Of a stretch of DNA of 64,000 bases, positions 4,049 to 52,013 are shown piece by piece (positions within the stretch are counted from its first letter, which is position 1; each line of letters opens with the position of its first letter). Source of the stretch: an uncultured Candidatus Saccharibacteria bacterium (GTDB taxonomy: Bacteria; Patescibacteriota; JABMPQ01; JAQVVF01); the NCBI GenBank assembly GCA_964574655.1, contig CAZNOH010000002.1:29620-93619 (forward strand), read 5' to 3'. A program made the position numbers and the translations under genes. Below the pieces are notes generated by a model that saw only the letters and a program-made list of their open reading frames with translations, had not been told where the DNA came from and made no database searches.

Positions 4049-4082
4049 TAATCCAAAAATTTATCAAGGTTTTACGTTTCAG

Positions 4083-4170
4083 AGCGTTGGAGCTTCGGAC
4101 CGTCAGATCGTCAGAACGTCAGAACTTCCGACGCTCCGACGCTCTGACGCTCCGAAAATCCGACGCTCTA
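4083..4170. repeat. GC-rich tandem octamer array (CCGACGCT)n with a CAGAACGTCAGA leader
   Basis: ccgacgctccgacgctctgacgctccgaaaatccgacgct. The same family occurs at 25695-25788 and 25953-26045. Confidence 0.6.
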
Positions 4171-4253: not shown

Positions 4254-5576
4254 TTATTCCTTTTTCTTTTCTTCAGACTTCTTTTTCTTCTTAGGCTTTT
4301 CTACTTTCTTTTCCTTCTTTTCTTTATCTTTTTTCTTATCTACAGATTTTTCTTCTTTTTTTCCTTTGTCCGCCGAAGCTTTAGCGGAGGTGGATTTTTT
4401 CTCTTCAGTCAACTCCTCGATCTCTTCTTCTTTCTTTTCAGAATCTAATTTTAAAGTTAATCCTAGTCTATGCTCTGCTGGCTCAATTGATAAGATTCTA
4501 AATTCTCTTTCTGATCCTATTACCAATTCTTTTTTAGCATCATCAATGCTGAACGGCAATTCAGAAACATGGACCAATCCATGAATATCTTTATCAAGTT
4601 GAATAAATATGCCGAATGGCTTTATTTCTTTTACAATTCCTTTTACAAGTTGGCCAACTTTATATCTCTTTACAGCTTCAATCCAAGGATCCCTTAATAA
4701 TTTTTTCATAGATAAAGTAATCTTTGAATCTTCAATGCCAATTATTTCTGCCTTTACTTTACCGCCGATTTTAACTAAGTTAGCTGGATCATCAACTCTT
4801 TGCCAAGACAATTCTGAAATATGGACCAAGCCTTCCAAGCCATCAAATTTTACAAAGATTCCAAAGTCAACTATTCCAGAAACTTCGCCTTCTACAACAT
4901 CACCGATTTTCACACTGCCGATTTTTTCTTTTTGTTTAGAAAAAGCAGCTTCCTTTTCTGAAATAATTAGTTTTTCATCTTTTGGATCAGCAGTCACAAT
5001 CTGAATTTTCATTTTTTTGCCAATGAAAGATTGCAGTTTTGACAATATCTTTTCTTGATCTCCGCCTTCAACTCTAGGATAATGCTCAGGTGTCAATTGT
5101 GAAACTGGCATAAAAGCAGGAATGCCAAATAAAGTGGTTAACAATCCGCCTTTATTTGCGCTCTGAATTTTAACAGTAATGATTTCTCTTTTGTCTCTTT
5201 TTTCATTCAATTCATCCCAAACTTCTTTCCTTGTTGCTTTTCTAAACGTTAGTTCTAAAATGTTTTCTTCATTTTCCATTTCCAAAATTGTGGCTTCAAC
5301 TTCATCGCCAACAGATAGCTCGCCATAAACATCCAAACTTTCCCAAAGCTCCTTACCACGAACTACGCCAATTCCATATTGACCCAAGTCAATATAAACA
5401 GCGTTCTTAGACATCTCAAGAACTTTGCCAATTAAAGTATCTCCAGGCTTTGGTACAACCTGAGCTTCTAATTGGTTCATGAAAGCTTCTTCTTCTTTCT
5501 TCTGTTCTAACTCTGTCTCTTTTACTTTTTCGCTGACAAGATTGTCTAGCGTCCTTAATTGTTTAGTGTTTTTCAT
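4254..5576 (-). CDS. rpsA: 30S ribosomal protein S1 with a lysine-rich C-terminal tail
   Basis: Multiple S1 domains (for example GKVLEMSKNAVYIDLG and GEVSGIVDFGIFVKF). The first 42 codons of the ORF as given in the track look non-native, so I prefer the start at MKNTKQ (ATG 5576-5574). Confidence 0.8.
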   Translation of the reverse strand: MKNTKQLRTLDNLVSEKVKETELEQKKEEEAFMNQLEAQVVPKPGDTLIGKVLEMSKNAVYIDLGQYGIGVVRGKELWESLDVYGELSVGDEVEATILEMENEENILELTFRKATRKEVWDELNEKRDKREIITVKIQSANKGGLLTTLFGIPAFMPVSQLTPEHYPRVEGGDQEKILSKLQSFIGKKMKIQIVTADPKDEKLIISEKEAAFSKQKEKIGSVKIGDVVEGEVSGIVDFGIFVKFDGLEGLVHISELSWQRVDDPANLVKIGGKVKAEIIGIEDSKITLSMKKLLRDPWIEAVKRYKVGQLVKGIVKEIKPFGIFIQLDKDIHGLVHVSELPFSIDDAKKELVIGSEREFRILSIEPAEHRLGLTLKLDSEKKEEEIEELTEEKKSTSAKASADKGKKEEKSVDKKKDKEKKEKKVEKPKKKKKSEEKKKE

Positions 5577-6322: not shown

Positions 6323-6413
6323 TCCTTCCTCCTGCGTTTGAAGTAAGTATTATAAATATTAACACAAACAAAAATAATTGTCAAACATAACAAAAAAAGA
6401 CTAATAAATAGTC

Positions 6414-6704
6414 TTAAAGTTCAAATTCTCTCTGGCAAGTCAAGCACTCGAATTTTCGTAAAAAACCAGTTGTGGATCTTGAAACATCAAAATGACATTC
6501 CGGACAGCTTGTACCTTCAAAAAAAATTGGCCTTAGCTGTTCTCCGCATTCATGGCAATAATTGCAACCACTTTCTTGCAGACTGTTATGAAATCCTTCG
6601 CATCCTTGCAATGGAGTTAACCGCGCGTTGATGATTTCTCCGCACTCTGAACAATATTTTAAGCTACCTTGTTCATGCGGTAAACTGCAGGTTGTTGGCA
6701 TTGC
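6414..6704 (-). CDS. Cys-rich zinc-ribbon protein
   Basis: Four or more CxxC pairs (CSECGE, CNYCHECGE, CPECH, CLTCQ). The start is placed at MPTTC, which is preceded by AGGAGGAGG. Confidence 0.5.
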   Translation of the reverse strand, partial: AMPTTCSLPHEQGSLKYCSECGEIINARLTPLQGCEGFHNSLQESGCNYCHECGEQLRPIFFEGTSCPECHFDVSRSTTGFLRKFECLTCQREFEL

Positions 6705-8142: not shown

Positions 8143-10572
8143 ATGGAAATAGGTATAATTAGAGATCGCAAAATCATTGACGAAATGCAGGAATCATATC
8201 TTGACTATGCAATGTCAGTTATAGTCTCTCGTGCGCTTCCTGACGTTAGAGATGGAATGAAGCCAGTTCATCGCAGAATTTTATATGCAATGTGGGATAT
8301 CGGTCTTCGCGCCAATGCAAAATTTAGAAAATCAGCCACAGTAGTCGGTGAAGTTTTGGGTAAATACCATCCTCATGGCGATATTGCTGTCTATGACTCT
8401 TTAGTTCGCTTGGCTCAAGAATTTTCTATGCGTAATCCATTGGTCAATGGACAAGGAAACTTTGGTTCAGTAGATGGCGACTCAGCAGCTGCTATGAGGT
8501 ATACAGAGTGTAAATTATCTAGAATTGCTGAAGAAATGCTTTTTGATATTGAAAAAGAAACTGTCGATTTCATTGATAACTATGATGGTTCACATCAGGA
8601 GCCAACAGTTTTACCAGCAAAATTACCAAATACCTTGATTAACGGCACAATGGGTATTGCTGTTGGTATGGCTACAAATATCCCTCCTCACAATCTAATT
8701 GAAATTGTTAATGCCATCTCATTATTAATTGAAAAGCCCGAAGCTTCAGTTGAAGACTTGATGCAATTTGTTAAAGGTCCTGACTTTCCAACTGGCGGTA
8801 TGATTTTTAATAAACAGGAAATTCTGCAAGTTTATGCAACTGGTCGTGGTGGAATTACAATGAGAGGTGTTGCTGATATTGAAGAAGAAAAAAAGGGCAC
8901 TTTCAGAATTATAATTACAGAAATTCCATTCCAAGTAAACAAAGCTACATTGATCGAAAAAATAGCTGATCTAGTCAAGAATAAAAAGATAGACGGCATT
9001 AGAGATCTTCGCGATGAATCTGACAAGGACGGTATTCGCGTTGTTGTTGAATTAAAAAAAGAAGCATTTCCCAAAAAAGTTTTAAATAGATTATACAATC
9101 TGACACAGCTACAGGAAAAATTTCACGTAAATATGCTTGCTTTGGTTGATGGTATCAAGCCAATGGTTTTGAACTTAAAGATGATGTTGGAAAAATATGT
9201 AAAACACCGAGTTGTAATCGTAACTAGGCGCGCTCAATTTGATTTACGCAAGGCTAAAGAAAGAGCTCATATTTTAGAAGGCTTAAAAAAAGCTTTAGAC
9301 CATATTGATGAAATTATAAAAATAATTAGAAAATCAGAAAGCAAAGAAATTGCCCATTTGAATTTAGTCAAAAGATTCAAATTCAGCGATGCGCAGACTA
9401 CAGCAATCTTGGAAATGAGATTATCTCAATTAGCAGCATTGGAAAGACAAAAGATTGAGGATGAATTGAAAGAAAAAAGAAGAATTATTAAAGAATTAGA
9501 AACTTTGCTAGCAAGCAAAAAATTAATATTAGGCGTAGTCAAAACTGAAGTTATAGCTTTAAGAGACAAATTCGGAAATGAAAGGCAAACAAAGGTTTTT
9601 TCATCAGGCATTGAAGAATTCAAGCCAGAAGATCTAATTCCAAAAGAAGACATCGTTATCAGTCTTACACGTGGCGGTTATATCAAGAGTCTGCCAGAAG
9701 CAACCTATCATGCTCAAAAACGTGGCGGTAAAGGCGTTATCGGCATGGCTACCAAGGAAGAAGATGTTGTTGATCATTTTTTCATGGCTGATACCCATTC
9801 TGATATTCTTTTCTTCACAAATTCAGGCAAAGTATTTCAGCTAAAAGCTTATGAAATACCAAAAGCAACTCGTCAGGCTAAAGGACAATCAATTGTTAAT
9901 TTCTTACAGCTATCTTCCGAAGAAAAAGTAACAGCCTTGATTTCATTAGATAAGAGCGTTATTTCTAAATATTTAGTCATGGTGACAAAGCAAGGCGTGA
10001 TTAAAAAAGTCACTCTTGAAGAATTTGGTAATGTCAGAAGATCAGGTCTAATTGCAATTAAGATCAAACCAGGCGATGAATTAGAATGGGTCAAGCCAAC
10101 GTCAGGTGCAGATCAAATTGTTCTTATCACTAAAAATGGCCAATCAATCAGATTTAAAGAAAAAGATGTTCGCGCCATGGGTCGTACTGCTTCCGGAGTT
10201 CGCGGTATTAAATTAAAAGGCAGTGATATCATTGTTAGCATGCATACGATTTCAGAAAAAATTACCAAAGACCAAAAAATATTTGTTATTACAGAAAATG
10301 GCTATGGAAAAACTACAAAAATCAGCGCTTACAAAATTCAAGGTCGTGGCGGTTCTGGAGTTAAAACAGCTAAGATCACATCAAAAAATGGTCCAATAGT
10401 CGCCGCCGGGGCAATTGATAGCACTATTGAAGAGTTGATCATTATTTCTAAAAAAGGAACTGTTATCAGAATTTCTGCTGATGCTGTCCCAGAACATGGC
10501 CGTGCTACTCAAGGAGTTCGAGTCATGAGAATGGAAGCCGGAGACAAAGTTGCCAGCGTGGCGTATGTTTAG
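8143..10572 (+). CDS. gyrA: DNA gyrase subunit A
   Basis: [27 protein letters not shown] near the N-terminus, the AAMRYTE active-site region, and C-terminal beta-pinwheel repeats. Confidence 0.95.
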
Positions 10573-10695: not shown

Positions 10696-11442
10696 CTAGA
10701 TAATATACCACTTTCTCTTGCGCGTGATGACTGATGCTGGCACAAACACTGCCCAGTCAATTGCTCCGACCAAGTCAATCAAAACATATTTTTCTTTCTT
10801 TATCACAATGCAAGGATTATAATCAGAATATTTTGGTGTATGAGGAAGATTGCTTTGAAACCATGTCGCAAGTTTTGCGCGAATATCATCAGGCATTTTT
10901 TTCAGCCTGTAACGATTCAAACTACATTCCTTCTCGCTTTCCTCCGGATCATCAGAATATGCTAGCATCGGTAAATTAAAAGCATCTGCACCAAATCGCC
11001 AATGTCGAATCAGTGTGTCAGCCATGTCTTCAATACGATCTCCATCAATTTCTGTAGACAATTCAACGCTTTTCAACGCCAGCTCCCTGATTGTTCGCTT
11101 TTTGCAAGTTCCTCGCCAATCAACTCCAATTGAGTTAATATTTACAGCTTTTGTATCTGGCTTTTTATCAGCAGAAGTTAATGGCAGAATAAACGCATGC
11201 TCAATCTTGCCAACCATGTATTCTCCAGGAATCAACACATCGTATTTTTTTTTCCCGTCGTAAGAAATAAATGTGCATTCAATTTCGTCAAAAGCAACAA
11301 TTTTAGTCCAAAGAGGAGGCGCAATTCCAGTCATTTGTCCATTACTTACTTCTTGATGACCGCCATAAAGTCTATCAAGAAAACAAATCATCTCTTTTAT
11401 CTCTTCTGGGTCATGTGTGTACTGGCTTGGGCGTCTACGCAT
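10696..11442 (-). CDS. hypothetical protein (higher-GC islet with a strong SD)
   Basis: GAGGAGGAAG precedes the ATG. The GC content is visibly above that of neighbouring genes. Confidence 0.45.
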   Translation of the reverse strand: MRRRPSQYTHDPEEIKEMICFLDRLYGGHQEVSNGQMTGIAPPLWTKIVAFDEIECTFISYDGKKKYDVLIPGEYMVGKIEHAFILPLTSADKKPDTKAVNINSIGVDWRGTCKKRTIRELALKSVELSTEIDGDRIEDMADTLIRHWRFGADAFNLPMLAYSDDPEESEKECSLNRYRLKKMPDDIRAKLATWFQSNLPHTPKYSDYNPCIVIKKEKYVLIDLVGAIDWAVFVPASVITRKRKWYII

Positions 11443-13874: not shown

Positions 13875-14293
13875 TTTAAAATACCTCGCTTTATTAGATC
13901 TGGAAAGATCTTATTCTTTAATATTGGTGACAAATCATTCCACTCGCTATCTTGAGTAAACCAAATGATCTCTTTTATTTCGCTTGTCGGTCTAGCCTCG
14001 TGTTTAATATTTCCTTGATAAAGTTTAATTCTGACAAATTTATTTTCTTTTGGATCATCAGAAGATGCCTTGTCAATGTATGTTCCTACATATGAAGGAA
14101 CACCAATAATTTCGTTATCTGATCCTAGTTCTTCTTTGATCTCTCTCTTTAAACAAGTAATATCATCCTCGCCTGCTTCAATCTTACCGCCAGGCAATAT
14201 CAATTTTGACGTATAATCTTTTTTCCGACAAAGCAAAATCCTATCATTAAGCACAATCAACAAACCTATTTTGTCAAAATCGATATTTTGCAT
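13862..14293 (-). CDS. NUDIX hydrolase
   Basis: Nudix box GGKIEAGEDDITCLKREIKEELG. The start is placed at MQNIDF, since the longer ORF would run into tRNA-Cys. Confidence 0.75.
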   Translation of the reverse strand: MQNIDFDKIGLLIVLNDRILLCRKKDYTSKLILPGGKIEAGEDDITCLKREIKEELGSDNEIIGVPSYVGTYIDKASSDDPKENKFVRIKLYQGNIKHEARPTSEIKEIIWFTQDSEWNDLSPILKNKIFPDLIKRGILKWTK

Positions 14294-14332
14294 TTTTAAT
14301 TTTGAATTTTTAATTCGCAATGAGGCCTGGAC

Positions 14333-14403
14333 CGGATTTGAACCGATGTACGCAGTTTTGCAAACTGCTGCCTAGCCACTCGGCCACCAGGCCTTGAACA
14401 AAG
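14333..14403 (-). tRNA. tRNA-Cys(GCA)
   Basis: Anticodon loop TTGCAAA and discriminator U73. Confidence 0.8.
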
Positions 14404-14418
14404 TTAACTGGGCGGTAC

Positions 14419-14491
14419 TGGGCTCGAACCAATGACCTACTCGGTGTAAACGAGTTGCTCTACCAACTGAGCTAACCGCCCAAAACCATAT
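14419..14491 (-). tRNA. tRNA-Val(TAC)
   Basis: 5' end GGGCGGTTAGCTCAGTTGGTAGAGC and anticodon loop TTTACAC. Confidence 0.85.
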
Positions 14492-14500
14492 GCCGCGGGG

Positions 14501-14582
14501 GAGACTCGAACTCCCAAGCCTTACGGCACATGCACCTCAAGCATGCCTGTATGCCAATTCCAGCACCGCGGCAAGTTTAAGT
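14501..14582 (-). tRNA. tRNA-Leu(GAG)
   Basis: Long variable arm and anticodon loop TTGAGGT. Confidence 0.8.
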
Positions 14583-14616
14583 TGTAGTCAAGAAATTAAT
14601 TAGCATTGGAGCGGGA

Positions 14617-14690
14617 TACCAGAATCGAACTGGCACCTTAACCTTGGCAAGGTTACGTACTACCACTATACTAATCCCGCGAATAGCATC
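14617..14690 (-). tRNA. tRNA-Gly(GCC) with an encoded CCA
   Basis: Acceptor stem GCGGGAT/ATCCCGC, anticodon loop TTGCCAA, and a 3' TCCA encoded in the DNA. Confidence 0.8.
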
Positions 14691-14731
14691 AACTTTTAAC
14701 CTTATGAACTTTAAGAACTTTATAACTAATC

Positions 14732-15017
14732 TGCCGGAGGGCAGAATCGGACTGCCGACACAACGGTTTTCCGTTTGGACTATATCATATTCCTAAATAA
14801 TAGGAATTTGGGCGCTTCCCATGCATTAAAATGCATAGTACTCCTGAAAAGGATAGTCTCTACACCTGCCAAGCACACAAAATGTGTGCTTGGATTGGCT
14901 CGGGATTGTCAAATAAATTATCTGATGTTCCCCGAATTCACCCAATTTGCTTAATTCATTACTGAATTAAGGGCCGAAAACCTTCAGCCGTTTGCTCTAC
15001 CACTGAGCTACTCCGGC
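14732..15017 (-). tRNA. tRNA-Phe(GAA) interrupted by a group I intron (exons 15017-14985 and 14771-14732)
   Basis: The exons join to GCCGGAGTAGCTCAGTGGTAGAGCAAACGGCT|GAAAACCGTTGTGTCGGCAGTCCGATTCTGCCCTCCGGCA. The anticodon is GAA, and the intron lies between positions 33 and 34 after U33. Confidence 0.75.
14772..14984 (-). ncRNA. group I self-splicing intron in the tRNA-Phe anticodon loop
   Basis: On the RNA strand: a P-like element aaattgggtgaattcgggg, Q aatcccgagc (P4 pairing UCGGG/CCCGA), R gtgtagagacta and S atgatatagtcc (P7 pairing GACUA/UAGUC). A U sits at the 5' splice site and a terminal G (omega G) ends the intron. A GGCC internal guide sequence can pair with the exon end GGCU. Confidence 0.75.
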
Positions 15018-15048
15018 ACAATAACGTCAAAAACTGTTATATCAAAAA

Positions 15049-15618
15049 TTATTTCTTTTCTTCTTTTTTAGTATTGTCTTCTGGTTTTTTTGATTTATCT
15101 TCAACTTTTTGAATTTTTTCTTGTTCTGGTAAAATATTTGGGGCAGTTGTAATCCTTACATCTTTTTCAGTTGCTTCAGCTTTTTTCTTTGCTTCAGCTT
15201 CTTGCTTAATTCTAATCGCTTCCTTTTCTTTTACCTCATCAAAACCCATATTTTCTAAGTCTGAAGCACTTATCTCTTTTTCTTTTAATTTTGATTTCTT
15301 CTGTTCTAGGTTTCTTAAATAGTAAAGTTTTGCGCGTCTCACACTGCCTTTTTTCAAAACCTCAAGCTTAACAATGGTTGGCAAATGAAAAGGAAATATT
15401 TTTTCAACACCAACTCCGGAAGCAGTTTTTCTAACCGTAAATGAGCCATCAAGTCCACGACCACCATTCACTCTTAAAACAGTCCCTTGAAAAAACTGGA
15501 TTCTTTCCTTATCACCTTCCTTAATTTTTTGGTATACTTTTACAGTATCGCCAGGCTGAATGTCTGGCATTTCTCTTTTGATTTGATTCTTTTCAAACTT
15601 CTTTATTAATTCTTTCAT
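15049..15618 (-). CDS. rplS: 50S ribosomal protein L19 with a K/E-rich C-terminal extension
   Basis: VRRAKLYYLRNL core motif. Confidence 0.85.
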   Translation of the reverse strand: MKELIKKFEKNQIKREMPDIQPGDTVKVYQKIKEGDKERIQFFQGTVLRVNGGRGLDGSFTVRKTASGVGVEKIFPFHLPTIVKLEVLKKGSVRRAKLYYLRNLEQKKSKLKEKEISASDLENMGFDEVKEKEAIRIKQEAEAKKKAEATEKDVRITTAPNILPEQEKIQKVEDKSKKPEDNTKKEEKK

Positions 15619-15626
15619 AAATATAA

Positions 15627-16178
15627 TTAATTATCTATTTTCAATCCTCTTTTTTGCAAATTTTCTAAAACAAATTCAAGCGTTTCATTTGGATCTTTAT
15701 CGCTTGTTTCAACTATTAAATCATATATGGAAAAGTCTGATATGTCAATGCCATATGTTGATTTATATCGCTTTGCTTCACTTTTTTCCCGCATCTCAAC
15801 TTTTTTAGAAGTAATATCTAGCGTTTCATTTTCACGATGAGCAATTCTATCTAATCTAACATTAATTGGCGCAGTCACCCAAATTTTGAAAAAATCATTG
15901 CTTTGTTCGCGATGAGCAAACCAGCCTGATAATCTGCCTTCAATAATGCAATTATCATGAGAATCAGCAAAGCTCATCACTTGCCTATCCAAGCTCGTAT
16001 CAAAAGAATTATCGTTTTCTGTTAGCTTGCTAAATTCTTCCAGACTCAATCCTTTTTTCTTTGCCATCTCGCGATAAATTTTTCCAGCATAAATATAATC
16101 AAAACTCAAAGTCTTCTGCAAATTTTTGCACAGTGTTGTTGTGCCAGAGCCTGGTAATCCGCTAACAGTTATCTTCAT
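15627..16178 (-). CDS. cmk: archaeal-type cytidylate (CMP) kinase
   Basis: MKITVSGLPGSGTTT P-loop, with EEFSK, IEGRLSGW, IWVTAP and IYDLIVETS segments matching the archaeal CMP kinase family. Confidence 0.75.
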   Translation of the reverse strand: MKITVSGLPGSGTTTLCKNLQKTLSFDYIYAGKIYREMAKKKGLSLEEFSKLTENDNSFDTSLDRQVMSFADSHDNCIIEGRLSGWFAHREQSNDFFKIWVTAPINVRLDRIAHRENETLDITSKKVEMREKSEAKRYKSTYGIDISDFSIYDLIVETSDKDPNETLEFVLENLQKRGLKIDN

Positions 16179-16858
16179 TATAATTTACTTAAAAAATTGT
16201 TTAAATCTTCTGGTAATTCTATTTCAAAATTATTCTCAATTCCACTTGGCAATCTTAATTTAAGATAATGCGCATGTAAAAATTGTCTTTCTAATTCAGT
16301 ATCTTCCATTTTTCTAAATCTATATTCTTGATCGCCAACAATCGGATGTCCAATCTTTGTAAGATGCACTCTTATCTGATGTGTCCTGCCCGTTTCAATT
16401 TTTACATCTAGTAAAGAAAATTTTTCGCCATATTCTTTAATAACTTCGTAGCGTGTAACAGCTGGTTTGCTTATTTTTGAAAGCCTAGCTCTGACCTTGC
16501 CTTTCTTTTCTAGCGAATAAACAATAATTCCCTTCTTCTCTTTTAATATACCATAAACTAATGCAAAATATTTTTTTTCAATTTGTCTATTTTTAAAAAC
16601 ATCTATTAAATAATCATATGCTTTTTGATTTTTAGCGACAATTATTAATCCAGATGTATCTTTGTCTAATCTATGAACAATACCAGGTCGAGCTTCTTGA
16701 CCGACATTTTTAATCTCAGGATAATTTTCAACAACAAAATCAGATAATGTGTTATCTTTATATTTATTATCAGGATGAACAACAAGTCCAGCTGGTTTAT
16801 TTATAATCAGAACATCATCATCCTCAAAAACTATTGCTTCCTTAAGATTAAATTGCAT
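16178..16858 (-). CDS. RluA-family pseudouridine synthase
   Basis: HRLDKDTSGLIIVAKN catalytic motif. Confidence 0.8.
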   Translation of the reverse strand: MQFNLKEAIVFEDDDVLIINKPAGLVVHPDNKYKDNTLSDFVVENYPEIKNVGQEARPGIVHRLDKDTSGLIIVAKNQKAYDYLIDVFKNRQIEKKYFALVYGILKEKKGIIVYSLEKKGKVRARLSKISKPAVTRYEVIKEYGEKFSLLDVKIETGRTHQIRVHLTKIGHPIVGDQEYRFRKMEDTELERQFLHAHYLKLRLPSGIENNFEIELPEDLNNFLSKL

Positions 16859-22002: not shown

Positions 22003-22078
22003 ATTATGCCAATTAAAAATTCCAAATGAAAAATGAAAAATTACTTTTAACTTTAGACTTTTAACTTTTAACTTCGTC

Positions 22079-22150
22079 TGCCCTCGGCACGAATTGAACG
22101 CACATTCACCCCTTAGGACGGGGTTGTTCTATCCGTTGAACTACGAGGGC
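22079..22150 (-). tRNA. tRNA-Arg(CCT)
   Basis: Anticodon arm ACCCC-GTCCTAA-GGGGT, D-arm GTTC/GAAC, and acceptor stem GCCCTCG/CGAGGGC. Confidence 0.7.
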
Positions 22151-22247
22151 CCGAACGAAGTTTCTGTAATAGTCACGCCTAGTATTGATTATTGAACATC
22201 TGTATTCAAAGTTGATAACTTCAATTGCAGAAACTTCGTTCGGGCCG
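22147..22247. repeat. 100-bp hairpin (16-bp arms) abutting tRNA-Arg(CCT) at an islet boundary
   Basis: gggcccgaacgaagtttctg...cagaaacttcgttcgggcc. Confidence 0.6.
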
Positions 22248-22382
22248 AGGACCCTTATACGTCCAATTCACAAAACCTCCATAACATTTCTAATTATATA
22301 TGAAAAATATTGACAGGTCAATTACACTTTGCATTTCTATAAGCTGAAAAAATAAAAAAACCGTTAAAAAACGGTTAGATAA

Positions 22383-22670
22383 TCAACATAGTACAAAATT
22401 CGCATAAAAAGAACCAAAATCAGTATCAACAATTCCATTCTTGCCAAATACCATCTCAACGATCGTTTGAATTGCCTGATGAACTGTTCTGCCCGAGCTG
22501 TCCATGATCAACCAGTCATTCCATTCGTCAATTTTTGCACCATCCCTATCCAAAAGCGTTACACCCATCCGTGATCCGCCATCAGAAGCATTCCATGAAA
22601 TCCTGATTTTTCCGATGTTATTCTTCTTTGCCAGAAGACGATCATGAAGCGTTTGCTTGTTGTCAGACAT
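22383..22670 (-). CDS. hypothetical 95-aa protein (islet; SD AGGAGG)
   Basis: Start at MSDNKQ. The longer track ORF 22383..22859 overlaps the zinc-ribbon gene out of frame and is rejected. Confidence 0.45.
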   Translation of the reverse strand: MSDNKQTLHDRLLAKKNNIGKIRISWNASDGGSRMGVTLLDRDGAKIDEWNDWLIMDSSGRTVHQAIQTIVEMVFGKNGIVDTDFGSFYANFVLC

Positions 22671-22893
22671 TTCGAGCCTCCTGATGCGTGCAACTCGAAA
22701 AGCTTGTGCAACGAGTGCAAACAAGCACTCCCTCTCCGGCGATACTTTCACAATCTGGACAGCACGGCTTTTCGCAAACTGAGCAGACATCAAAACTCTT
22801 GTGGTCTTCAGGAGTAACAATATAATCCTTACCACAGCAAGGACAATGAAATGTGCCAACCTGACCAGGAAGAAGAATCTGTGTCGTCTGCAT
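22663..22893 (-). CDS. Cys-rich zinc-ribbon protein (76 aa)
   Basis: CPCCGK, CSVCEKPCCPDC and CTRC motifs; SD GAAGGAGA. Confidence 0.5.
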   Translation of the reverse strand: MQTTQILLPGQVGTFHCPCCGKDYIVTPEDHKSFDVCSVCEKPCCPDCESIAGEGVLVCTRCTSFSSCTHQEARNV

Positions 22894-23102
22894 TTTGTCT
22901 CCTTCTGCTCTTTAAAGAGCGACCCTGATCAAAAACTATCAAAGAAAACTGTATTTGTCAACGCTTTTCAATATTTCCATCCAAAGATGATAACTAGTAC
23001 ATTTTATTATTCTTCAAAAAAACTTGTAAGTAAATGCTTGCCAAAAATAAAAGGTTATGTTAGTCTAATACATTGCACCTTCACAACCAGAGAGGGAGAA
23101 AC

Positions 23103-23789
23103 ATGGCCAGACAACAAGTTTTGGTTGAGGAATTAGTAAGGCAAGAAGAAACACGATTCATTGATCAAATGGGAGATTTGGAAGCACAAAGATCAGCTGA
23201 AAGAAATGCCGTTGAAGAAATCGAAACAGGCATTCCAAGAATGCGTGAAACTGTTACTGACGCTTTTCCTAGTATTGAAGCGAATGAACTCAATCGGCTT
23301 TTGCAAGAAGCCCGAATGACTCTTCGTCGTAAAGCTGGACTTGAAGCGCCTGATCAAAATGAAGCTGAATCACTGGCTAGGGTTGTAGGCAATCGATTTG
23401 TGCATAAATACATGATGCTTTGGGCAATCTTGATTGTCTTGAGCTTCATCGTCAGTATGATTGGAATTAACTATTTGGTTGAAAATGATAAGTCAGTAGC
23501 AACGGAATCGCAGGTTCCTGTTTCAATCGAAGCTATCCACGTAACAGGTACAAATCAAGTGAACATCAATGTCTATTCCAGCACAGACGCAGATGAAGTG
23601 CTTCTTTATCGCAACACCAGCGTAGTTAAGAAATGGCAAAAGGGCGGAAATTTTTTTCCAGTTGTAGAGTATCATGATCGCGGTACTTACGTGTATTTTG
23701 CCGAAGCGTTTCGCGACGGAGTTAAGACCACCAGTCAACAGGTTCAGGTGGTCTTTGGTCAAAACAACAAGGAGGGACAGCAGAGATGA
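23103..23789 (+). CDS. hypothetical single-TM protein (islet)
   Basis: SD GAGGGAG precedes MARQQ; there is a central TM segment. Confidence 0.5.
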   Translation: MARQQVLVEELVRQEETRFIDQMGDLEAQRSAERNAVEEIETGIPRMRETVTDAFPSIEANELNRLLQEARMTLRRKAGLEAPDQNEAESLARVVGNRFVHKYMMLWAILIVLSFIVSMIGINYLVENDKSVATESQVPVSIEAIHVTGTNQVNINVYSSTDADEVLLYRNTSVVKKWQKGGNFFPVVEYHDRGTYVYFAEAFRDGVKTTSQQVQVVFGQNNKEGQQR

Positions 23790-24058
23790 CATTCTTGTGG
23801 GCATTGCTTGTAAGTGCAATCGGAGCAATTAGTTTCAATTTCGGAAAACGTGAAACAAGCTATTGGCTAGGTTATGGAATTAAATTTGCTTGCTATCTGG
23901 CACTCGTCTGGCTAATCCAATATCATGTTCTGACAACCTTCGATGCAATGCGAACAATAACCTGGATTCTTGTATTGATGGGCATTAGCAATGGACTGAT
24001 GTACTCTTTGAAGCAACAGAAGACGGTCCAGTTACTGGCGGAATCATCGGAGCACTAG
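23786..24058 (+). CDS. small membrane protein (islet)
   Basis: Three hydrophobic segments; its stop overlaps the next start. Confidence 0.45.
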   Translation: MTFLWALLVSAIGAISFNFGKRETSYWLGYGIKFACYLALVWLIQYHVLTTFDAMRTITWILVLMGISNGLMYSLKQQKTVQLLAESSEH

Positions 24059-24141
24059 TTTCCGTTGTTCTCCTACTTTGCTTTAGTATCAACAGCTGTG
24101 AGTGTGCTCGTGCTGAAGATCTCTACAAAACAGTTGCAACA

Positions 24142-25641
24142 ATGCAGGTAGATGCTACCAAGTTCAACCAGAATCCAGTTGACGAGAATCATATCAGAGT
24201 TGTGCCAAAAGAAACAGCCATGAGGGTTGCAAAACAAGAGATTTCTTCCAGCGGTCAGAACTACGGCGCATACTATGAATTCCAAAATCAGAGTATGACA
24301 ATCCAGAAGGTTAATGGACGGCTCTATTGGGTCGCTCCAATGGAATTCGCTGGATATTTCAAGTCAGTAAATGCAAAGTTTACGCCAGGATACATCATGA
24401 TTTCAGCTGAAGATGAAACGGAAAAGCCGAAGTTGGTAACAAAGAAAGCTGATGGATCATCGATCAAAATGATCTATCTGATGTCAGCATGGTTCGGTGA
24501 TGAACTTGATCGATTCCTGTATAACAAGCATCCAGATTGGTATCTCGACGACTTCTCCTTTGAAGTCGATGAGGAATTGAATCCATGGCAGGTTGCGACA
24601 GTCCTTGATCGTTTCGCTGGCTACAATTACTACACTGTAAAAGGCGTACTAGTTGTGAGTCCAGAAACTGGTGAAGAAAAATTCTACAAGGTTGAAGATA
24701 TTCCAAGCTGGGTTGATCGAGCCGTTCCGCAAAAATTGGCAATCAATTTTTTCAGATGGTGGGGCACTTACAAGTATGGTTGGATGAACAACGTGAATTC
24801 CAATCCAGATTTGAAGAAACCAACTGAAATTAGTGGCCAGTATGCAGTCGAAATGATTTGGGGATCTGATGATGAACCGTACTGGTTCACAGGATTCACT
24901 TCTATGAACGACAATGATCAAGCTCTTGTTGGCAAAGCTTTTATGGATACAAGGACAGGAAGGTTCTTCTACATTCCAGCAAGTGGAGCCACAGAGGAAA
25001 GAGTTGCAAGTGACATTCACGCAGTACTCGGCAAGCAAACAGTCGATCTGGCTGTAAGTGAACCGATTCCCTACAATATGTATGGACAACCTAACTGCTG
25101 GGTAGCGCAAGTCATTTCGATGCCAAGCGGTGAAGGCCAAGCACAACATAGTGGCGGAGCGCTTGTCAAAATCGCGATTGTCAATGGTGATACAACAGCA
25201 CCACCAGTCTTGGCTGAAAGCAAGCGAGAGGCACTAACACTCTTCAAGCAGTCTCTTGCTAGAAATGGAATCCAGACAACGGTCAGCGATACGAGCGCGC
25301 GGAAAGAACTGAGGGGAAGTATCCAGCGACTCAGCATCATCCCTCAGGAAAATTCAACAAGCATTCGATTCAGTCTCGAAGGCAGTTCTCTGGAGTTTGC
25401 CTGCGATTTGTTGAAATCTGATCAGAGCAAAACGTCACTGACGCTTGCTAAGCCAGGTGATGTTGTAAATATTATCTATTTCGAAACCAAGGAAAGACTC
25501 GTCACTGTCGATGACTTCTCAGTTGAAGGCCAAGTCCCAGTCACCTCTCCAAACCAGGAGAGAATGGACGAGACTGTTCGACAGCAACGTGAACTCGAAC
25601 AAGAGCAGGCTCCCCCAGTTCAACCAGTTCCCGCACAATAA
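24142..25641 (+). CDS. hypothetical 499-aa protein (islet)
   Basis: Long ORF with no recognisable motifs; GC about 44% against an AT-rich host. Confidence 0.55.
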   Translation: MQVDATKFNQNPVDENHIRVVPKETAMRVAKQEISSSGQNYGAYYEFQNQSMTIQKVNGRLYWVAPMEFAGYFKSVNAKFTPGYIMISAEDETEKPKLVTKKADGSSIKMIYLMSAWFGDELDRFLYNKHPDWYLDDFSFEVDEELNPWQVATVLDRFAGYNYYTVKGVLVVSPETGEEKFYKVEDIPSWVDRAVPQKLAINFFRWWGTYKYGWMNNVNSNPDLKKPTEISGQYAVEMIWGSDDEPYWFTGFTSMNDNDQALVGKAFMDTRTGRFFYIPASGATEERVASDIHAVLGKQTVDLAVSEPIPYNMYGQPNCWVAQVISMPSGEGQAQHSGGALVKIAIVNGDTTAPPVLAESKREALTLFKQSLARNGIQTTVSDTSARKELRGSIQRLSIIPQENSTSIRFSLEGSSLEFACDLLKSDQSKTSLTLAKPGDVVNIIYFETKERLVTVDDFSVEGQVPVTSPNQERMDETVRQQRELEQEQAPPVQPVPAQ

Positions 25642-25694
25642 TATAGTTATCCGTACCTTTTTTCAAACCACATTCGTGGTTTTTTTATTTATTG

Positions 25695-25788
25695 GAACTT
25701 CGGAGTTTCGGAACTTCAGATCGTCAGAACGTTCCGACGTTCCGACGTTCCGACGTTCCTAAGCTCCGACAGTCCGAAGCTCTGTTCC
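25695..25788. repeat. tandem octamer array (CCGACGTT)n of the GACGTTCC family
   Basis: cagaacgttccgacgttccgacgttccgacgttcc. Confidence 0.6.
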
Positions 25789-25952
25789 TAACCTGTGCAT
25801 AACTATGGTATAACTTGTGTTTTGGTGTTCGCTAGTTATTGGTATTCTTTTTAATAAATGCTATAATTATGTCGAAAGTGTCGGACACTTTAGACAGATG
25901 CTTGAATAAGGCAAAAAAGCGTGTTATAGCAAAAATGTTCCACGTGGAACAA

Positions 25953-26045
25953 TCGGAGCGTCGGAGAATCAGAACGTCAGATCGTCGGAGCGTAGGACGT
26001 TCCGACGTTCCGACGTTCTGAAGCTCCGAAGATCTGACGCTCCAA
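25953..26045. repeat. tandem octamer array of the GACGTTCC family, second copy in the same orientation
   Basis: tcagaacgtcagatcgtcggagcgtaggacgttccgacgttccgacgttctg. Confidence 0.6.
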
Positions 26046-26056
26046 ATTCAAAAATT

Positions 26057-26806
26057 ATGGAAATCAAGGAATCATTGCAACAATTTGGATTAAAGCTATC
26101 CGAGTCCAACCTGTACCTGGCTGGCTTAAAATTGGGACCTGTCACAGTTAATGCCTTGGCAAAAGAGGCGAATGTGAAACGCACTACTGCCTATGCCAGT
26201 CTTGAAAAACTCAAAAAAATAAAACTCGCAAAAGAATATAAAAAGGGGAGATCTACAATCTTTGAAATGTGTTCTCCAGAAAGTCTACGTGATACACTTA
26301 AAATTCAAAGAGAAAAACTTATCGAACAAGAAGTGCTTCTCACCGATCTAATACCAAATATCAACGACTTCCTCAAATCAGAAACAAAGGTTGAAAATAT
26401 TAAAAAGTATGATAAGATTGAAGAAATTAAACAGATTTTATTTGATTTATTCTTGTCTAAAGATAAATTGCTAATCATGGGCTCAGACAAGTATCTTACA
26501 GAATATTTAGACAAACTAAAATTTCTAGACAAATTCTTAAGCAAAAGAATAGAAAAGAACAACAATATCTATATAGTTACAGATGCAAAAGACATTATGA
26601 CAGGCAAGTATCCTGATAATCAATCATCTCCTCATTACAAGTTCACTCCTAATCAAATAGACTTTAAATCACTGATCTTAATCTCAGGCAATCGCTTCTT
26701 ACAGATTCATTTCAATGCAAAGGTTACCGGTTTATATATAGAAGACAAGCATTTCATTTCTGCAATGAGATATTTCTTCCAGTTCTTGTGGAATAGTCTT
26801 AAATAA
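26057..26806 (+). CDS. TrmB-like transcriptional regulator (paralog of 11658..12443)
   Basis: N-terminal HTH LSESNLYLAGLKLGPVTVNALAKEANVKRTTAY. It is flanked by the palindrome ATGTTCCACGTGGAACA at 25936-25951 and 26884-26901. Confidence 0.55.
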   Translation: MEIKESLQQFGLKLSESNLYLAGLKLGPVTVNALAKEANVKRTTAYASLEKLKKIKLAKEYKKGRSTIFEMCSPESLRDTLKIQREKLIEQEVLLTDLIPNINDFLKSETKVENIKKYDKIEEIKQILFDLFLSKDKLLIMGSDKYLTEYLDKLKFLDKFLSKRIEKNNNIYIVTDAKDIMTGKYPDNQSSPHYKFTPNQIDFKSLILISGNRFLQIHFNAKVTGLYIEDKHFISAMRYFFQFLWNSLK

Positions 26807-26814
26807 GCAAGCGC

Positions 26815-26862
26815 TGATTCGACGCTGATACTGACGCTGATTCGACGCTGATAATCGCTTAA
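26815..26862. repeat. tandem 11-mer repeat (TTCGACGCTGA)n
   Basis: gctgattcgacgctgatactgacgctgattcgacgctgataat. Confidence 0.5.
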
Positions 26863-26912
26863 ATTTAGTCTGGCAATATTAGAATGTTCCACGTGGAACA
26901 TTTCGAATCTTT

Positions 26913-26983
26913 CGGGGCATAGTATACCGGTAGTACGCGTCCTTCGGGAGGATGTAGACTGGGTTCGATTCCCAGTGCCCCGA
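26913..26983 (+). tRNA. tRNA-Pro(CGG), copy 1
   Basis: C1-G72 pair, anticodon loop TTCGGGA, T-arm CTGGGTTCGATTCCCAG. Confidence 0.75.
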
Positions 26984-26990
26984 TTCGAAT

Positions 26991-27068
26991 TATAAATAAC
27001 TAAATGAAAAATAACAAAATTGCCGTCGGGTCGATAATTTAGTTATTTTGTTATTTAGTTATTTATAA
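26991..27068. repeat. tRNA-associated hairpin element (arms ATAACTAAAT...AACAAAATT)
   Basis: aaataactaaatgaaaaataacaaaatt-gccgtcgggtcgat-aatttagttattttgttatttagttattt. A homolog occurs at 30409-30493. Confidence 0.6.
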
Positions 27069-27076
27069 TTCACAGT

Positions 27077-27147: not shown

Positions 27148-27245
27148 TATTAACAATCAACTCCTAACAAATAGCATTTAACAAATTAAAAAAAATAAAT
27201 TCTAAATCCTAAACTCTAAATAAACTCAAAAATAAAATTCAAAAT

Positions 27246-29965: not shown

Positions 29966-30335
29966 TAAAAATCGCGAATTTACACAAATTCAGCACAAAT
30001 TTCACAAATAAAAAATGACGTTTTAACACGTCATTTTTTTATGTTTGCTAGAATTGGCTAAGGTTGGAGTGAGATTTAATGAAAAATCTTTTTAAAGATC
30101 ATTCATATAAACCTTAGCCAGTTTTAGGAAACAGTTCAGTATGTATATCTTGTCAATAGTATTAACATAATATAGCAGTATTTTGCCTTGTTTAAGGCAA
30201 ACAACGTTTAGATAATTTTGTAATATTTAAAAATAGAATACTAATCAACAATATGCTTGATTTATTTATAAAATGTATTAGAATAAGGATAACAAGTAGC
30301 TTGGAGCAATAGATCGCAAGCTCGTATCAAATTTT

Positions 30336-30406
30336 CGGGGTGTAGTATACCGGTAGTACGCGTCCTTCGGGAGGATGTAGACTGGGTTCAATTCCCAGCA
30401 CCCCGA
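30336..30406 (+). tRNA. tRNA-Pro(CGG), copy 2
   Basis: Identical to copy 1 except for compensatory acceptor-stem changes (CA/TG to TG/CA) and a G-to-A change in the T-loop. Confidence 0.75.
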
Positions 30407-30408
30407 AA

Positions 30409-30493
30409 TTAATAACTAAATAACTAAATTCAAAATAACAAAATTATCGTTGATAAATTTAGTTATTTAGCATTTTGTTATTTAGTTATTTTT
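30409..30493. repeat. tRNA-associated hairpin element, second copy
   Basis: aataactaaataactaaattcaaaataacaaaatt-atcgttgat-aaatttagttatttagcattttgttatttagttattt. Confidence 0.6.
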
Positions 30494-30497
30494 AAAT

Positions 30498-50573: not shown

Positions 50574-50936
50574 CTATTTTTTTGTTTTTGCGCAATCTAT
50601 GCACAATTTTGCAGTTGGACTAGCTTCTAATCTTGCCTTGTCCATATCTTTGGCGCATTTTTCACATTTTCCGAATGAGCCTTCTTTTATTCTATCTAAA
50701 GCTTCATTAACATCTTTAAGTTTCAATTCTAAATTGCTCTCAACAGACAAATTGCTATCATAAAGTGATACTTCAGCTGCTTCAGCAGTGTTATCAAAGA
50801 TTGGATCGCCAAAATTACTAAATTTTGCATCAAAAGTTCCTTTTGTTTTAGGATCTTTTGTTGCAACATCGCCTAAACTCTTCACAAGCTGTTGTTTTTC
50901 TTTTTCTAATTTTTCTTTTATATTGTTGTCTTGCAT
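50574..50936 (-). CDS. DksA/TraR-family C4 zinc-finger protein
   Basis: C-terminal CEKCAKDM...CIDCAK. Confidence 0.75.
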   Translation of the reverse strand: MQDNNIKEKLEKEKQQLVKSLGDVATKDPKTKGTFDAKFSNFGDPIFDNTAEAAEVSLYDSNLSVESNLELKLKDVNEALDRIKEGSFGKCEKCAKDMDKARLEASPTAKLCIDCAKTKK

Positions 50937-52013
50937 TTGTATTATATTTAATATCTAATACATTAAGTTTACCACTAAATTAAATAAAAATCCAGTGAAA
51001 TAAAAAAAAACAGGCGCCAGAGGGCGCCCGTTAAAAATATTTAATGGCGCTCTGGCACCCGTTGGAGTCATATCTTACCGCCTTTCTCCTATTTGTGTTT
51101 AGCACATAGGATAAGAGCAGGATTTAGCGATATAACTCATACAAGGTGCACAAGAAGCCTGATAGTTCTTCAATGTGTCTTTTCTCTCACCGTCCTTCTG
51201 GCTTTTGATCTATTTTGGATCTTGGCCTTAATTTTTGTTTTTGATTTTTTGACCCCAATTGATTTGGAGTATAAAGTACAATACGGGTGTATCAGCACCC
51301 TTAACGGACAGAGAGAGCGTGCCTCACGCGAATACTCACTGATTTCACTAATTGCCACTAATGCGATTAGAATTAGTGTTAATTAGTGAAATTAGTGTAG
51401 ATTAATGTGAAGGACGCTCTTTCCGTACGGTCGCAGTAAAATAGATTTTAATTAAGATATCGTTAATCAGCATAAGTTGCCCAAAGCTGACCAAATGGCA
51501 GAGCCATTGAAGATTAGCGCGGGTAAAAGAAGAGGAAATATACAATAGTTCATCTTATAAACATATATTACCACTCAGGATAGCAAAAGAAATGTGTTCT
51601 TTTGGCTCGTCTATGAATCATTTTAGCTTTTTTCTATGTAAATCAAGATTCTCCACTCTGCAACACGTCAAAGAGCAAACTTTTCTTCAATTACAATATA
51701 AACTAGGCAGAAAGCCTAATCTGATTCTGACAAGCTCAAATTTTGAAAAAACGTTTTTTGTTTTTGTTTCTACATATATTATAGCATGAAATAACAATTT
51801 GTTCAAACCTTGTGATAAATAATAATTAGGGCTTTAATAAAGCCAATATGCGAGTTATCAACAGTGAACAATAAAGTTATACACAGGCATGTTAATAACT
51901 ATTAAGCAGTTTTGAACAACATAGTACCAGCTTATCCACAGTCTTTTGAACAATTTAATAACAAAAAAATCCAGATAACTGGATTAAAAAGATCTAATAT
52001 TGAATTTTTAAGA

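Follow-up and report, generated by a model that had tools for sequence, protein, structure and literature searches.

Why is one small regulator gene in an AT-rich bacterial genome bracketed by a perfect palindrome as well as by GC-rich tandem repeats, and do these sequences form one device? The question is raised by a 64,000-nucleotide stretch of an uncultured Candidatus Saccharibacteria bacterium (GenBank assembly GCA_964574655.1, contig CAZNOH010000002.1, positions 29,620 to 93,619; hereafter the window, to whose positions all coordinates refer), in which the gene of a TrmB-like winged-helix regulator lies between two copies of a palindrome, with octamer arrays close by. A preliminary description of this locus regarded the palindromes as an operator pair of the regulator or as the termini of a small element. 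Comparison with related sequences (labelled L001, L002 and L007-L011) indicates that the observation is real, but that it joins two unrelated things, conserved palindromes and young repeats. With a probability of roughly 0.7, two independent layers overlap at this locus, namely a conserved TrmB-like gene flanked by parS sites (the centromere sites of the partition protein ParB) and young, labile hairpins built of octamer arrays. The arrays are lineage-specific insertions which are missing in three of the four other lineages. Arrays and palindromes form no functional unit; in bracketing the gene, young repeat insertions happen to coincide with conserved centromere sites.

The first layer is recognised from the palindrome itself. 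Its 16-bp form, TGTTCCACGTGGAACA, occurs exactly twice in the 64 kb (Table 1), with no other site at three or fewer mismatches; the chance expectation is 0.06, and at least two copies were found in none of 100 shuffled sequences. The same 16-mer is tabulated for Pseudomonas aeruginosa as its parS2 and parS3 sites (PMC4368675, Table 1 therein) and also constitutes the parS of P. putida (PMC7022226). It conforms to the parS pattern tGTTNCACGTGAAACa and is one base off the Bacillus subtilis parS consensus TGTTCCACGTGAAACA, the site used in ParB work. A perfect 18-bp palindrome had been described on both sides of the gene; the 16-mer is indeed present at both places, but the perfect 18-mer (ATGTTCCACGTGGAACAT) only at 26884-26901, while the upstream copy reads ATGTTCCACGTGGAACAA over the same extent.

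Conservation of the site across relatives is extreme. The regulator protein is 92% identical in L007 (a 645-kb JGI contig) and in L008 and L009 (which carry the same protein as L007, P0002), 88% in L001 (a Patescibacteria metagenome-assembled genome, MAG), 78% in L002 and in L010 (which matches L002) and 77% in L011. The exact 16-mer lies upstream of the gene in all of these, and downstream too wherever the contig extends far enough, so that the absence of the palindrome near orthologs, considered earlier as the outcome which would speak against a link to the regulator, is not what was found. Across five lineages both sites are without a single change, whereas the surrounding intergenic DNA is nearly randomised and the protein differs by up to 23%; an unchanged site between diverged flanks argues for purifying selection on the site itself. 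No such 16-mer was found near two distant TrmB-like homologs (27% and 37% identity) or near a paralog within the window (26% identity). The palindrome is thus most likely a canonical parS, a predicted ParB centromere site, and not a TrmB operator, since a clade-specific regulator with an operator equal to a pan-bacterial centromere is much less likely. It represents already-known biology in a phylum where parS is not discussed, and in annotation the palindromes are to be labelled parS instead of operators.

The identification of the enclosed gene as TrmB-like holds. Its 249-aa product carries the winged helix-turn-helix domain PF01978 (E = 1.3e-10; 41.4 bits against a cut-off of 25.6) and resembles the sugar-responsive TrmB/TrmBL1 regulators of archaea in this N-terminal domain, which is followed by a long helix. 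The TrmBL1 model matches only weakly, over residues 2-173 (23 bits against an equivalog cut-off of 650). Unlike the archaeal proteins, the regulator is bacterial and clade-restricted, and residues ~175-249 have no Pfam or NCBIfam match, including to the C-terminal sugar-binding domain of TrmB. A sequence search of the PDB with the regulator returned no relative, and an AlphaFold2 model built from seven close orthologs is too poor to judge the fold (predicted local distance difference test score, 41.7). The family comprises only seven clusters at E <= 1e-10 among 5.8 billion proteins, with orthologs 77-100% identical and relatives annotated as Patescibacteria group bacteria; a metagenome scan with the ortholog alignment added only the two distant homologs mentioned above, both without parS. 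In all relatives the gene occupies the same chromosomal context, with tRNA-His/Arg upstream and tRNA-Pro/Ala together with Wzy_C downstream. Two longer database entries, P0006 (292 aa) and P0007 (269 aa), are artefacts in which the regulator has been extended at its N-terminus by translation of parS and the arrays. Likewise, the open reading frames (ORFs) beginning MFHVE are, as described before, spurious translations of the palindrome. A conserved small ORF (MSKVSD...MFHVE) was considered and rejected, as L011 has a stop codon in it, the frames differ and substitutions follow the symmetry of the palindrome instead of codon positions.

The second layer consists of the GC-rich arrays. Three such loci exist, as first reported, and their GC content (0.54-0.58 against 0.344 for the window) does set them apart from the AT-rich surroundings; the formula (CCGACGYT)n given for them, however, covers the right arm only. 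Each locus is composed of a left (CGTCRGAN)n array followed by its reverse complement NTCYGACG, yielding an imperfect hairpin of 90-100 nt whose arms are ~80% complementary and are built of a 7-nt core plus one variable base per unit. Of 19 occurrences of the core heptamer (CGTCRGA/TCYGACG) in the window, against 3.5 expected, 17 fall inside the three loci. DNA-fold z values are -3.9, -7.9 and -5.9 for copies A, B and C, respectively; predicted RNA folds of -44 to -69 kcal/mol contain 7-bp helices interrupted by a 1x1 mismatch at every eighth position. In copy B the periodic arms can pair in two shifted registers (inverted repeats I1 and I2), while copy C shows the tandem-repeat (TRF) arrays CGTCAGAA and TCCGACGC, a hairpin score of 20 and an RNA fold of -55/-69 kcal/mol. 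All three copies align in register over ~90 nt with 75-80% identity, their variant units follow one another in the same order, and their ends (AGAGCG...CGCTCT) agree; the loci are therefore dispersed copies of one palindromic element of ~90 nt, and not independent products of slippage. Whole copies of ~90 nt have been dispersed, three per 64 kb here in addition to those in L007.

An 11-mer array had also been described downstream of the gene. It exists and has a period of 11, lies at the position given in Table 1, and is essentially a perfect duplication of 19 nt with a spacing of 23 nt. It has a GACGCT core in common with the octamer family and forms no hairpin (DNA z = +1.0); it is degenerate in L007, and L001 and L002 have ordinary small hairpins instead. 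A role of the arrays as intrinsic terminators was rejected, as a canonical terminator precedes array A and no array is followed by a T-run. The locus matches no Rfam family at the gathering score or with E <= 1, except that array B has chance matches to miRNA hairpins below threshold.

Are the arrays real and, if so, how old are they? In two independent assemblies of short reads, Logan SRR13723393 and SRR13723394, all features of the locus are reproduced with 100% identity to the window, which rules out an assembly artefact and implies that the arrays are stable in the sampled population. Proteins from the window ends were matched only on Logan contigs of 2.6-4.5 kb, which reach at most ~150 bases beyond the window end.

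Comparison of lineages shows a rapid turnover. Arrays A and B are present in L007 and absent from L001, L002 and L011; against the L001 and L002 sequences, array B stands out as ~90 bp cleanly inserted between parS-1 and the start codon. L007 carries GC-rich arrays at both orthologous sites, longer than those of the window and with large central loops; their arms are unbalanced (9.6 against 3.2 units and 9.4 against 3.9 units), and the array in the B slot reaches ~200 nt. The same slot between parS-1 and ATG holds a CAATTTT 7-mer array in L002 and L010, TAATCRG/ATATYGG 7-mers in L011 and nothing in L001. Thus, arrays arise repeatedly in one slot and their arms change copy number independently, with the conserved signals left untouched. 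The GC-rich arrays are young, and they are dispensable for the locus, since close relatives lack them. In L007, an insertion of ~2.5 kb specific to that lineage (14174-16699) carries small ORFs and further GC-rich arrays (CTTCCGA twice, and ACGCTCCC in 8 copies), from which it follows that the family has spread further there.

Table 1. Features of the regulator locus and the distant third array copy, in window positions.
Feature	Position	Strand	Remark
End of the 499-aa ORF	stop at 25641		left border of the locus
Canonical intrinsic terminator of the 499-aa ORF, AAACCACATTCGTGGTTT then T-run	25665..25688	+	terminator scan (hairpin 25665-25682)
GC-rich array copy A	25695..25788	.	between terminator and next promoter
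DnaA-box-like nonamer TGTGCATAA (TTATGCACA on the - strand)	25794..25802	-	position kept in all lineages
TrmB-like gene promoter, sigma-70-like (best in the scan), TTGGTA, 17-nt spacer, TG-n-TATAAT (TGcTATAAT)	25839..25867	+	promoter scan
27-bp palindrome TGTCGAAAGTGTC-G-GACACTTTAGACA	25870..25896	.	candidate operator, or 5' RNA hairpin; inverted repeat I15
parS-1 (predicted), TGTTCCACGTGGAACA	25936..25951	.	exact match to published parS
GC-rich array copy B	25953..26045	.	between parS-1 and start codon; presumed 5' leader
TrmB-like winged-helix regulator gene, 249 aa	26057..26806	+	PF01978
11-nt-period direct array (CGCTGATTCGA, 3.6 copies)	26812..26853	+	between TrmB-like gene and parS-2
parS-2 (predicted), TGTTCCACGTGGAACA	26885..26900	.	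11 nt upstream of tRNA-Pro
tRNA-Pro(CGG)	26912..26984	+	conserved downstream neighbour; then AT-rich periodic hairpin 26985-27073
GC-rich array copy C	4081..4169	.	between tilS and S1 gene

The GC-rich family belongs to a genome-wide population of arrays and hairpins with periods of 6-12 nt, filling most intergenic spacers. A census of non-overlapping arrays (period 6-12, at least 2.5 copies) and of hairpins (score of at least 15), each compared with ten shuffles, returned 52 short-period arrays in the window against 1-6 in shuffled sequence, 42 of them in the ~20% of sequence outside long ORFs, and 15 long hairpins against none. Most of these hairpins have array-built arms, each locus with a unit of its own, and several unit families recur (AATATCCG, AAATAACT/ATTTAGTT, ACTTTAT and AATTTCT). 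The arrays occur in the spacers of co-directional genes and of tRNA genes, in the promoter regions of divergent genes and behind terminators. L007 holds 29 arrays in 20.7 kb and L001 holds 20, while the locus of a distant TrmB homolog (L005) has two in 8.3 kb.

The tRNA genes deserve separate mention. Nearly every tRNA-tRNA spacer in three related genomes contains a long AT-rich hairpin of 7-8-nt arrays (AAATAACT/ATTTAGTT, TTAACAN), located at 22003-22078, 26985-27073 and 30408-30493 in the window, at 9326-9418, 10947-11037, 11111-11193 and 14817-14913 in L001, and at 6396-6486, 10993-11118 and 11192-11273 in L007. Their position is kept while their sequence drifts, and in the His-Arg spacer of the window the right arm is missing and the hairpin does not fold any more. 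In L001 and L007, tRNA-Ala is followed by tRNA-Val(CAC), which is missing from the window, where arrays take its place (27149-27245). The second tRNA-Pro of the window (30335-30407) has the anticodon CGG, the orthologous gene in L001 and L007 having TGG; the unit of tRNA-Pro plus hairpin at 26913-27065 is ~79-84% identical to 30327-30495, which suggests duplication or conversion.

A mechanism for the two layers can be proposed. Judging by the exact sequence identity, ParB dimers would load at both parS sites as CTP-dependent clamps and build a partition complex, and the control element of the TrmB-like gene itself would more likely be the 27-bp palindrome abutting its -10 box. Bound ParB may also influence the promoter of the gene, given the fixed distance of 65 bp described below. 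As for the arrays, replication slippage would extend them, strand-switch or snap-back copying would create the inverted partners, and pairing of the periodic arms in shifted registers would favour further slippage; such arrays would be tolerated wherever no sequence-specific signal is disrupted. If transcribed, copy B would give the 5' leader a hairpin of about -59 kcal/mol, with a possible effect on mRNA processing, translation or decay.

Several points weigh against this two-layer reading. The sites share with chromosomal parS/ParABS systems the identical 16-bp perfect palindrome, the few clustered copies and the extreme conservation across lineages. Pfam scans of ~50 ORFs found no ParB (PF02195/PF17762) or ParA gene in the 64-kb window; a whole-database ParB search seeded with B. 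subtilis Spo0J had only Bacillus proteins among the matches listed, and nothing relevant was found in the literature on ParB in Patescibacteria, the candidate phyla radiation (CPR) or Saccharibacteria. Gene orientation in the window diverges near 22-23 kb, but cumulative GC skew is not minimal there, and the signals for an origin are ambiguous. Moreover, the sites differ from generic centromeres in bracketing one small regulator gene at a fixed 65-bp phasing to its promoter, which exceeds what a centromere would need and makes a link to the gene possible. On the side of the arrays, no target-site duplication was seen at the three copy junctions and no mobilising enzyme was found; furthermore, the position-kept hairpins of the tRNA spacers imply that some array hairpins may be under selection.

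The last point leads to a different explanation of the arrays, in which their hairpins are selected RNA-level devices such as RNase III-type processing sites, transcript stabilisers or insulators of genes and tRNAs, with the GC-rich copies as working parts of the same system. The predicted hairpins are strong, they are placed between genes of the same direction, within a 5' leader and within the spacers of tRNA genes, and the tRNA-spacer hairpins, which could reflect a role in pre-tRNA processing, keep their position in three genomes; a function as transcript stabilisers has been proposed for the hairpins of cyanobacterial short tandemly repeated repetitive sequences (STRRs; PMC2670836). Nevertheless, copies A and B are absent from three of four other lineages in which the locus is otherwise conserved, copy A comes after a canonical terminator and before the next promoter, the arms in L007 are unbalanced, and the hairpin of the His-Arg spacer has been lost in the window. 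Strand asymmetry was examined as a sign of RNA-level selection and discarded, as about six loci favour the transcribed strand, three oppose it and the rest are equal, without a consistent stability excess over the array hairpins. Selection at the RNA level as the general explanation is, accordingly, rather unlikely.

The proposal made initially for the palindromes, that they are operators of the flanked TrmB-like regulator and serve autoregulation by looping or roadblock, is improbable. TrmB-family proteins bind palindromes, every relative has the pair on either side of the ortholog, the upstream copy is placed between promoter and start codon at a fixed distance from a second palindrome, and no ParB gene was found in the 64-kb window. 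However, the chance arrival of an operator at the pan-bacterial parS sequence is very unlikely (~1.5e-5 for one specific 8-nt half-site), the site shows no change at all while the protein changes by 23%, and neither the paralog nor the distant homologs have it. It is the promoter palindrome, instead, which changes symmetrically with lineage, as the operator of an evolving regulator would. This 27-bp palindrome (also written TGTCGAAAGTGTC-N-GACACTTTMGACA) begins 3 nt after the -10 hexamer and spans the expected transcription start, is unique in the window and is present in all relatives. In L007 it reads GTCGGAAGTGTC-G-GACATTTCCGAC, with the substitutions mirrored in both halves, which fits a site read by a diverging dimeric protein or, alternatively, an RNA stem. 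From its position and symmetry, the 27-bp palindrome is more likely the autoregulatory operator than the parS pair, and would be the better candidate. The promoter itself matches at 10 of 12 positions with an extended -10, and its -10 region is kept in the relatives; together with the DnaA-box-like nonamer, the 27-bp palindrome and parS-1 it makes up a block of ~165 bp after array A. In L007, a hairpin and T-run equivalent to the terminator of Table 1 likewise lie upstream of the arrays.

Apart from a pure operator role, the parS sites may be wired into gene control in addition to serving as a centromere, a speculative reading to which only a small chance is given. It is considered because the parS pair is strictly kept around a clade-specific gene and because the phasing is invariant: the first half-site of the 27-bp palindrome starts exactly 65 bp before parS-1 in all five lineages, and the 19 bp immediately before parS are unalignable between lineages, yet the spacing is constant. 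This constant spacing is the one feature hinting at a coupling of parS and promoter. In one possible version, ParB loading gates expression of the regulator directly and couples segregation status to transcription; in another, more radical one, the TrmB-like protein itself reads parS in a lineage possibly without ParB. Either way, the conserved parS-gene-parS arrangement offers a small testable case for ParB acting on an adjacent promoter.

It is very improbable that the arrays are protein-binding iterons of an origin or partition region comprising parS and the DnaA-box-like motif. They are periodic and adjoin parS and a conserved TTATNCACA-type box (which reads TGTGGATAA in L002, L010 and L011), and gene orientation diverges nearby, at 22-23 kb; but a copy of the same element lies at 4.1 kb, between tilS and the S1 gene, parS and the box are retained in relatives that have no arrays or have unrelated units in the slot, and there is only a single box and no dnaA gene in the 64-kb window. 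A small mobile cassette with the TrmB-like gene as its cargo and the palindromes as its termini is scarcely credible: identical sequences of 18-22 bp do stand on either side of a single gene, but the tRNA and Wzy_C context is the same in all relatives, no transposase or integrase lies near the gene, and the sequence is that of a known centromere.

A separate stretch of the window bears on the question of an origin. At 50936-52010, ~1.1 kb are without a convincing ORF and contain three DnaA-type boxes within 86 bp (51855 TTATCAACA, 51877 TTATACACA and 51932 TTATCCACA) beside AT-rich DNA, as well as a GC-rich, structured-looking sequence at 51010-51060 with no Rfam match. This region may be oriC or an unrecognised RNA gene; in the former case, parS would lie ~25 kb from it.

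How do the arrays of the two-layer reading relate to repeats described elsewhere? Their closest analogues are STRRs and elements of the REP/Correia type, of which they represent a new variety. With cyanobacterial STRRs they share short-period (7-9 nt) tandem arrays, several unit families, many intergenic sites and inverted pairs forming hairpins. STRRs reportedly lengthen a helix of RNase P RNA. The arrays differ from them in that the units of the window are unrelated to the STRR1-3 heptamers, that the host belongs to Patescibacteria instead of heterocystous cyanobacteria, and that the GC-rich family has a period of 8 with one 1x1 mismatch in each unit and has spread as an entire palindrome of ~90 nt. 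Repetitive extragenic palindromes (REPs) with the bacterial interspersed mosaic elements (BIMEs) and Correia-type palindromic intergenic repeats are likewise close analogues of the octamer arrays. These and elements resembling miniature inverted-repeat transposable elements (MITEs) are also imperfect palindromes of ~100 nt which have several intergenic copies, are co-transcribed with their neighbours and vary in presence between close relatives; unlike them, the arrays have an internal tandem periodicity, and the window shows no target-site duplication and, among the ORFs scanned, no transposase domain or REP-associated tyrosine transposase (RAYT). With clustered regularly interspaced short palindromic repeats (CRISPR) they have in common only repeated short units in non-coding DNA: as already noted in the preliminary description, they are not CRISPR, having contiguous 8-nt units without spacers, inverted halves, no cas genes or domains in the window and no Rfam CRISPR match at the locus.

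STRR heptamer arrays, whose function is unknown, lie scattered in intergenic DNA, where they form hairpins, for instance between hupS and hupL (PMC2670836); going by the passage of PMC2858038 which cites Vioque 1997, they also occur in the gene for RNase P RNA. In the literature on Patescibacteria/CPR, no description of such short-period repeats was found. The window thus represents a reduced-genome lineage with STRR-like short-period arrays and array-built hairpins in most intergenic spacers, turning over fast enough for unrelated arrays to occupy the same slot in sister lineages. The origin and role of STRR-type repeats are unsolved in cyanobacteria; a second lineage, unrelated to these and with gains, losses and expansions that can be dated, allows the mechanism to be approached by comparison. 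When viral contigs were scanned for the octamer, the scan detected octamer-array hairpins, such as (GAGCGTCC)n-loop-(ACGCTCCG)n, at 2769-2862, 4566-4655 and 5062-5154 of L013 (IMGVR_UViG_3300037869_000010), a viral-classified contig of 61% GC, and direct (AGCGTCGG)6 and (CGAAGGACG)5 arrays at 5100-5400 of L012, a giant-virus MAG. Hence, the architecture of array-built palindromes is not unique to this clade and occurs well outside Patescibacteria.

Further observations concern the surroundings of the arrays. Array A lies at the right edge of a GC-richer segment of 3.46 kb (22323-25781; GC 0.40-0.46 against 0.34), which is absent from L001 and partly present in L007 and L002. A phage or defence origin of this segment was considered and not retained, its ORFs of 238, 90 and 499 aa having no Pfam, NCBIfam or PHROGs match. 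At its left edge, beside tRNA-Arg(CCT), a perfect inverted repeat of 23 bp (GGCCCGAACGAAGTTTCTGTAAT / ATTGCAGAAACTTCGTTCGGGCC), enclosing a loop of 53 nt, is located at 22148-22246. Three of four Logan contigs mapped back to the window (L003, L004 and L015) end inside array hairpins (27064, 3035), and array repeats may contribute to the fragmentation of Patescibacteria MAG assemblies. Lastly, arrays of ATATTACGG and its reverse complement (588-623 and 1041-1093) flank a 122-aa ORF (656-1024) of the 23S_rRNA_IVP family (PF05635), where they form a long-range inverted pair around the gene and not a tight hairpin.

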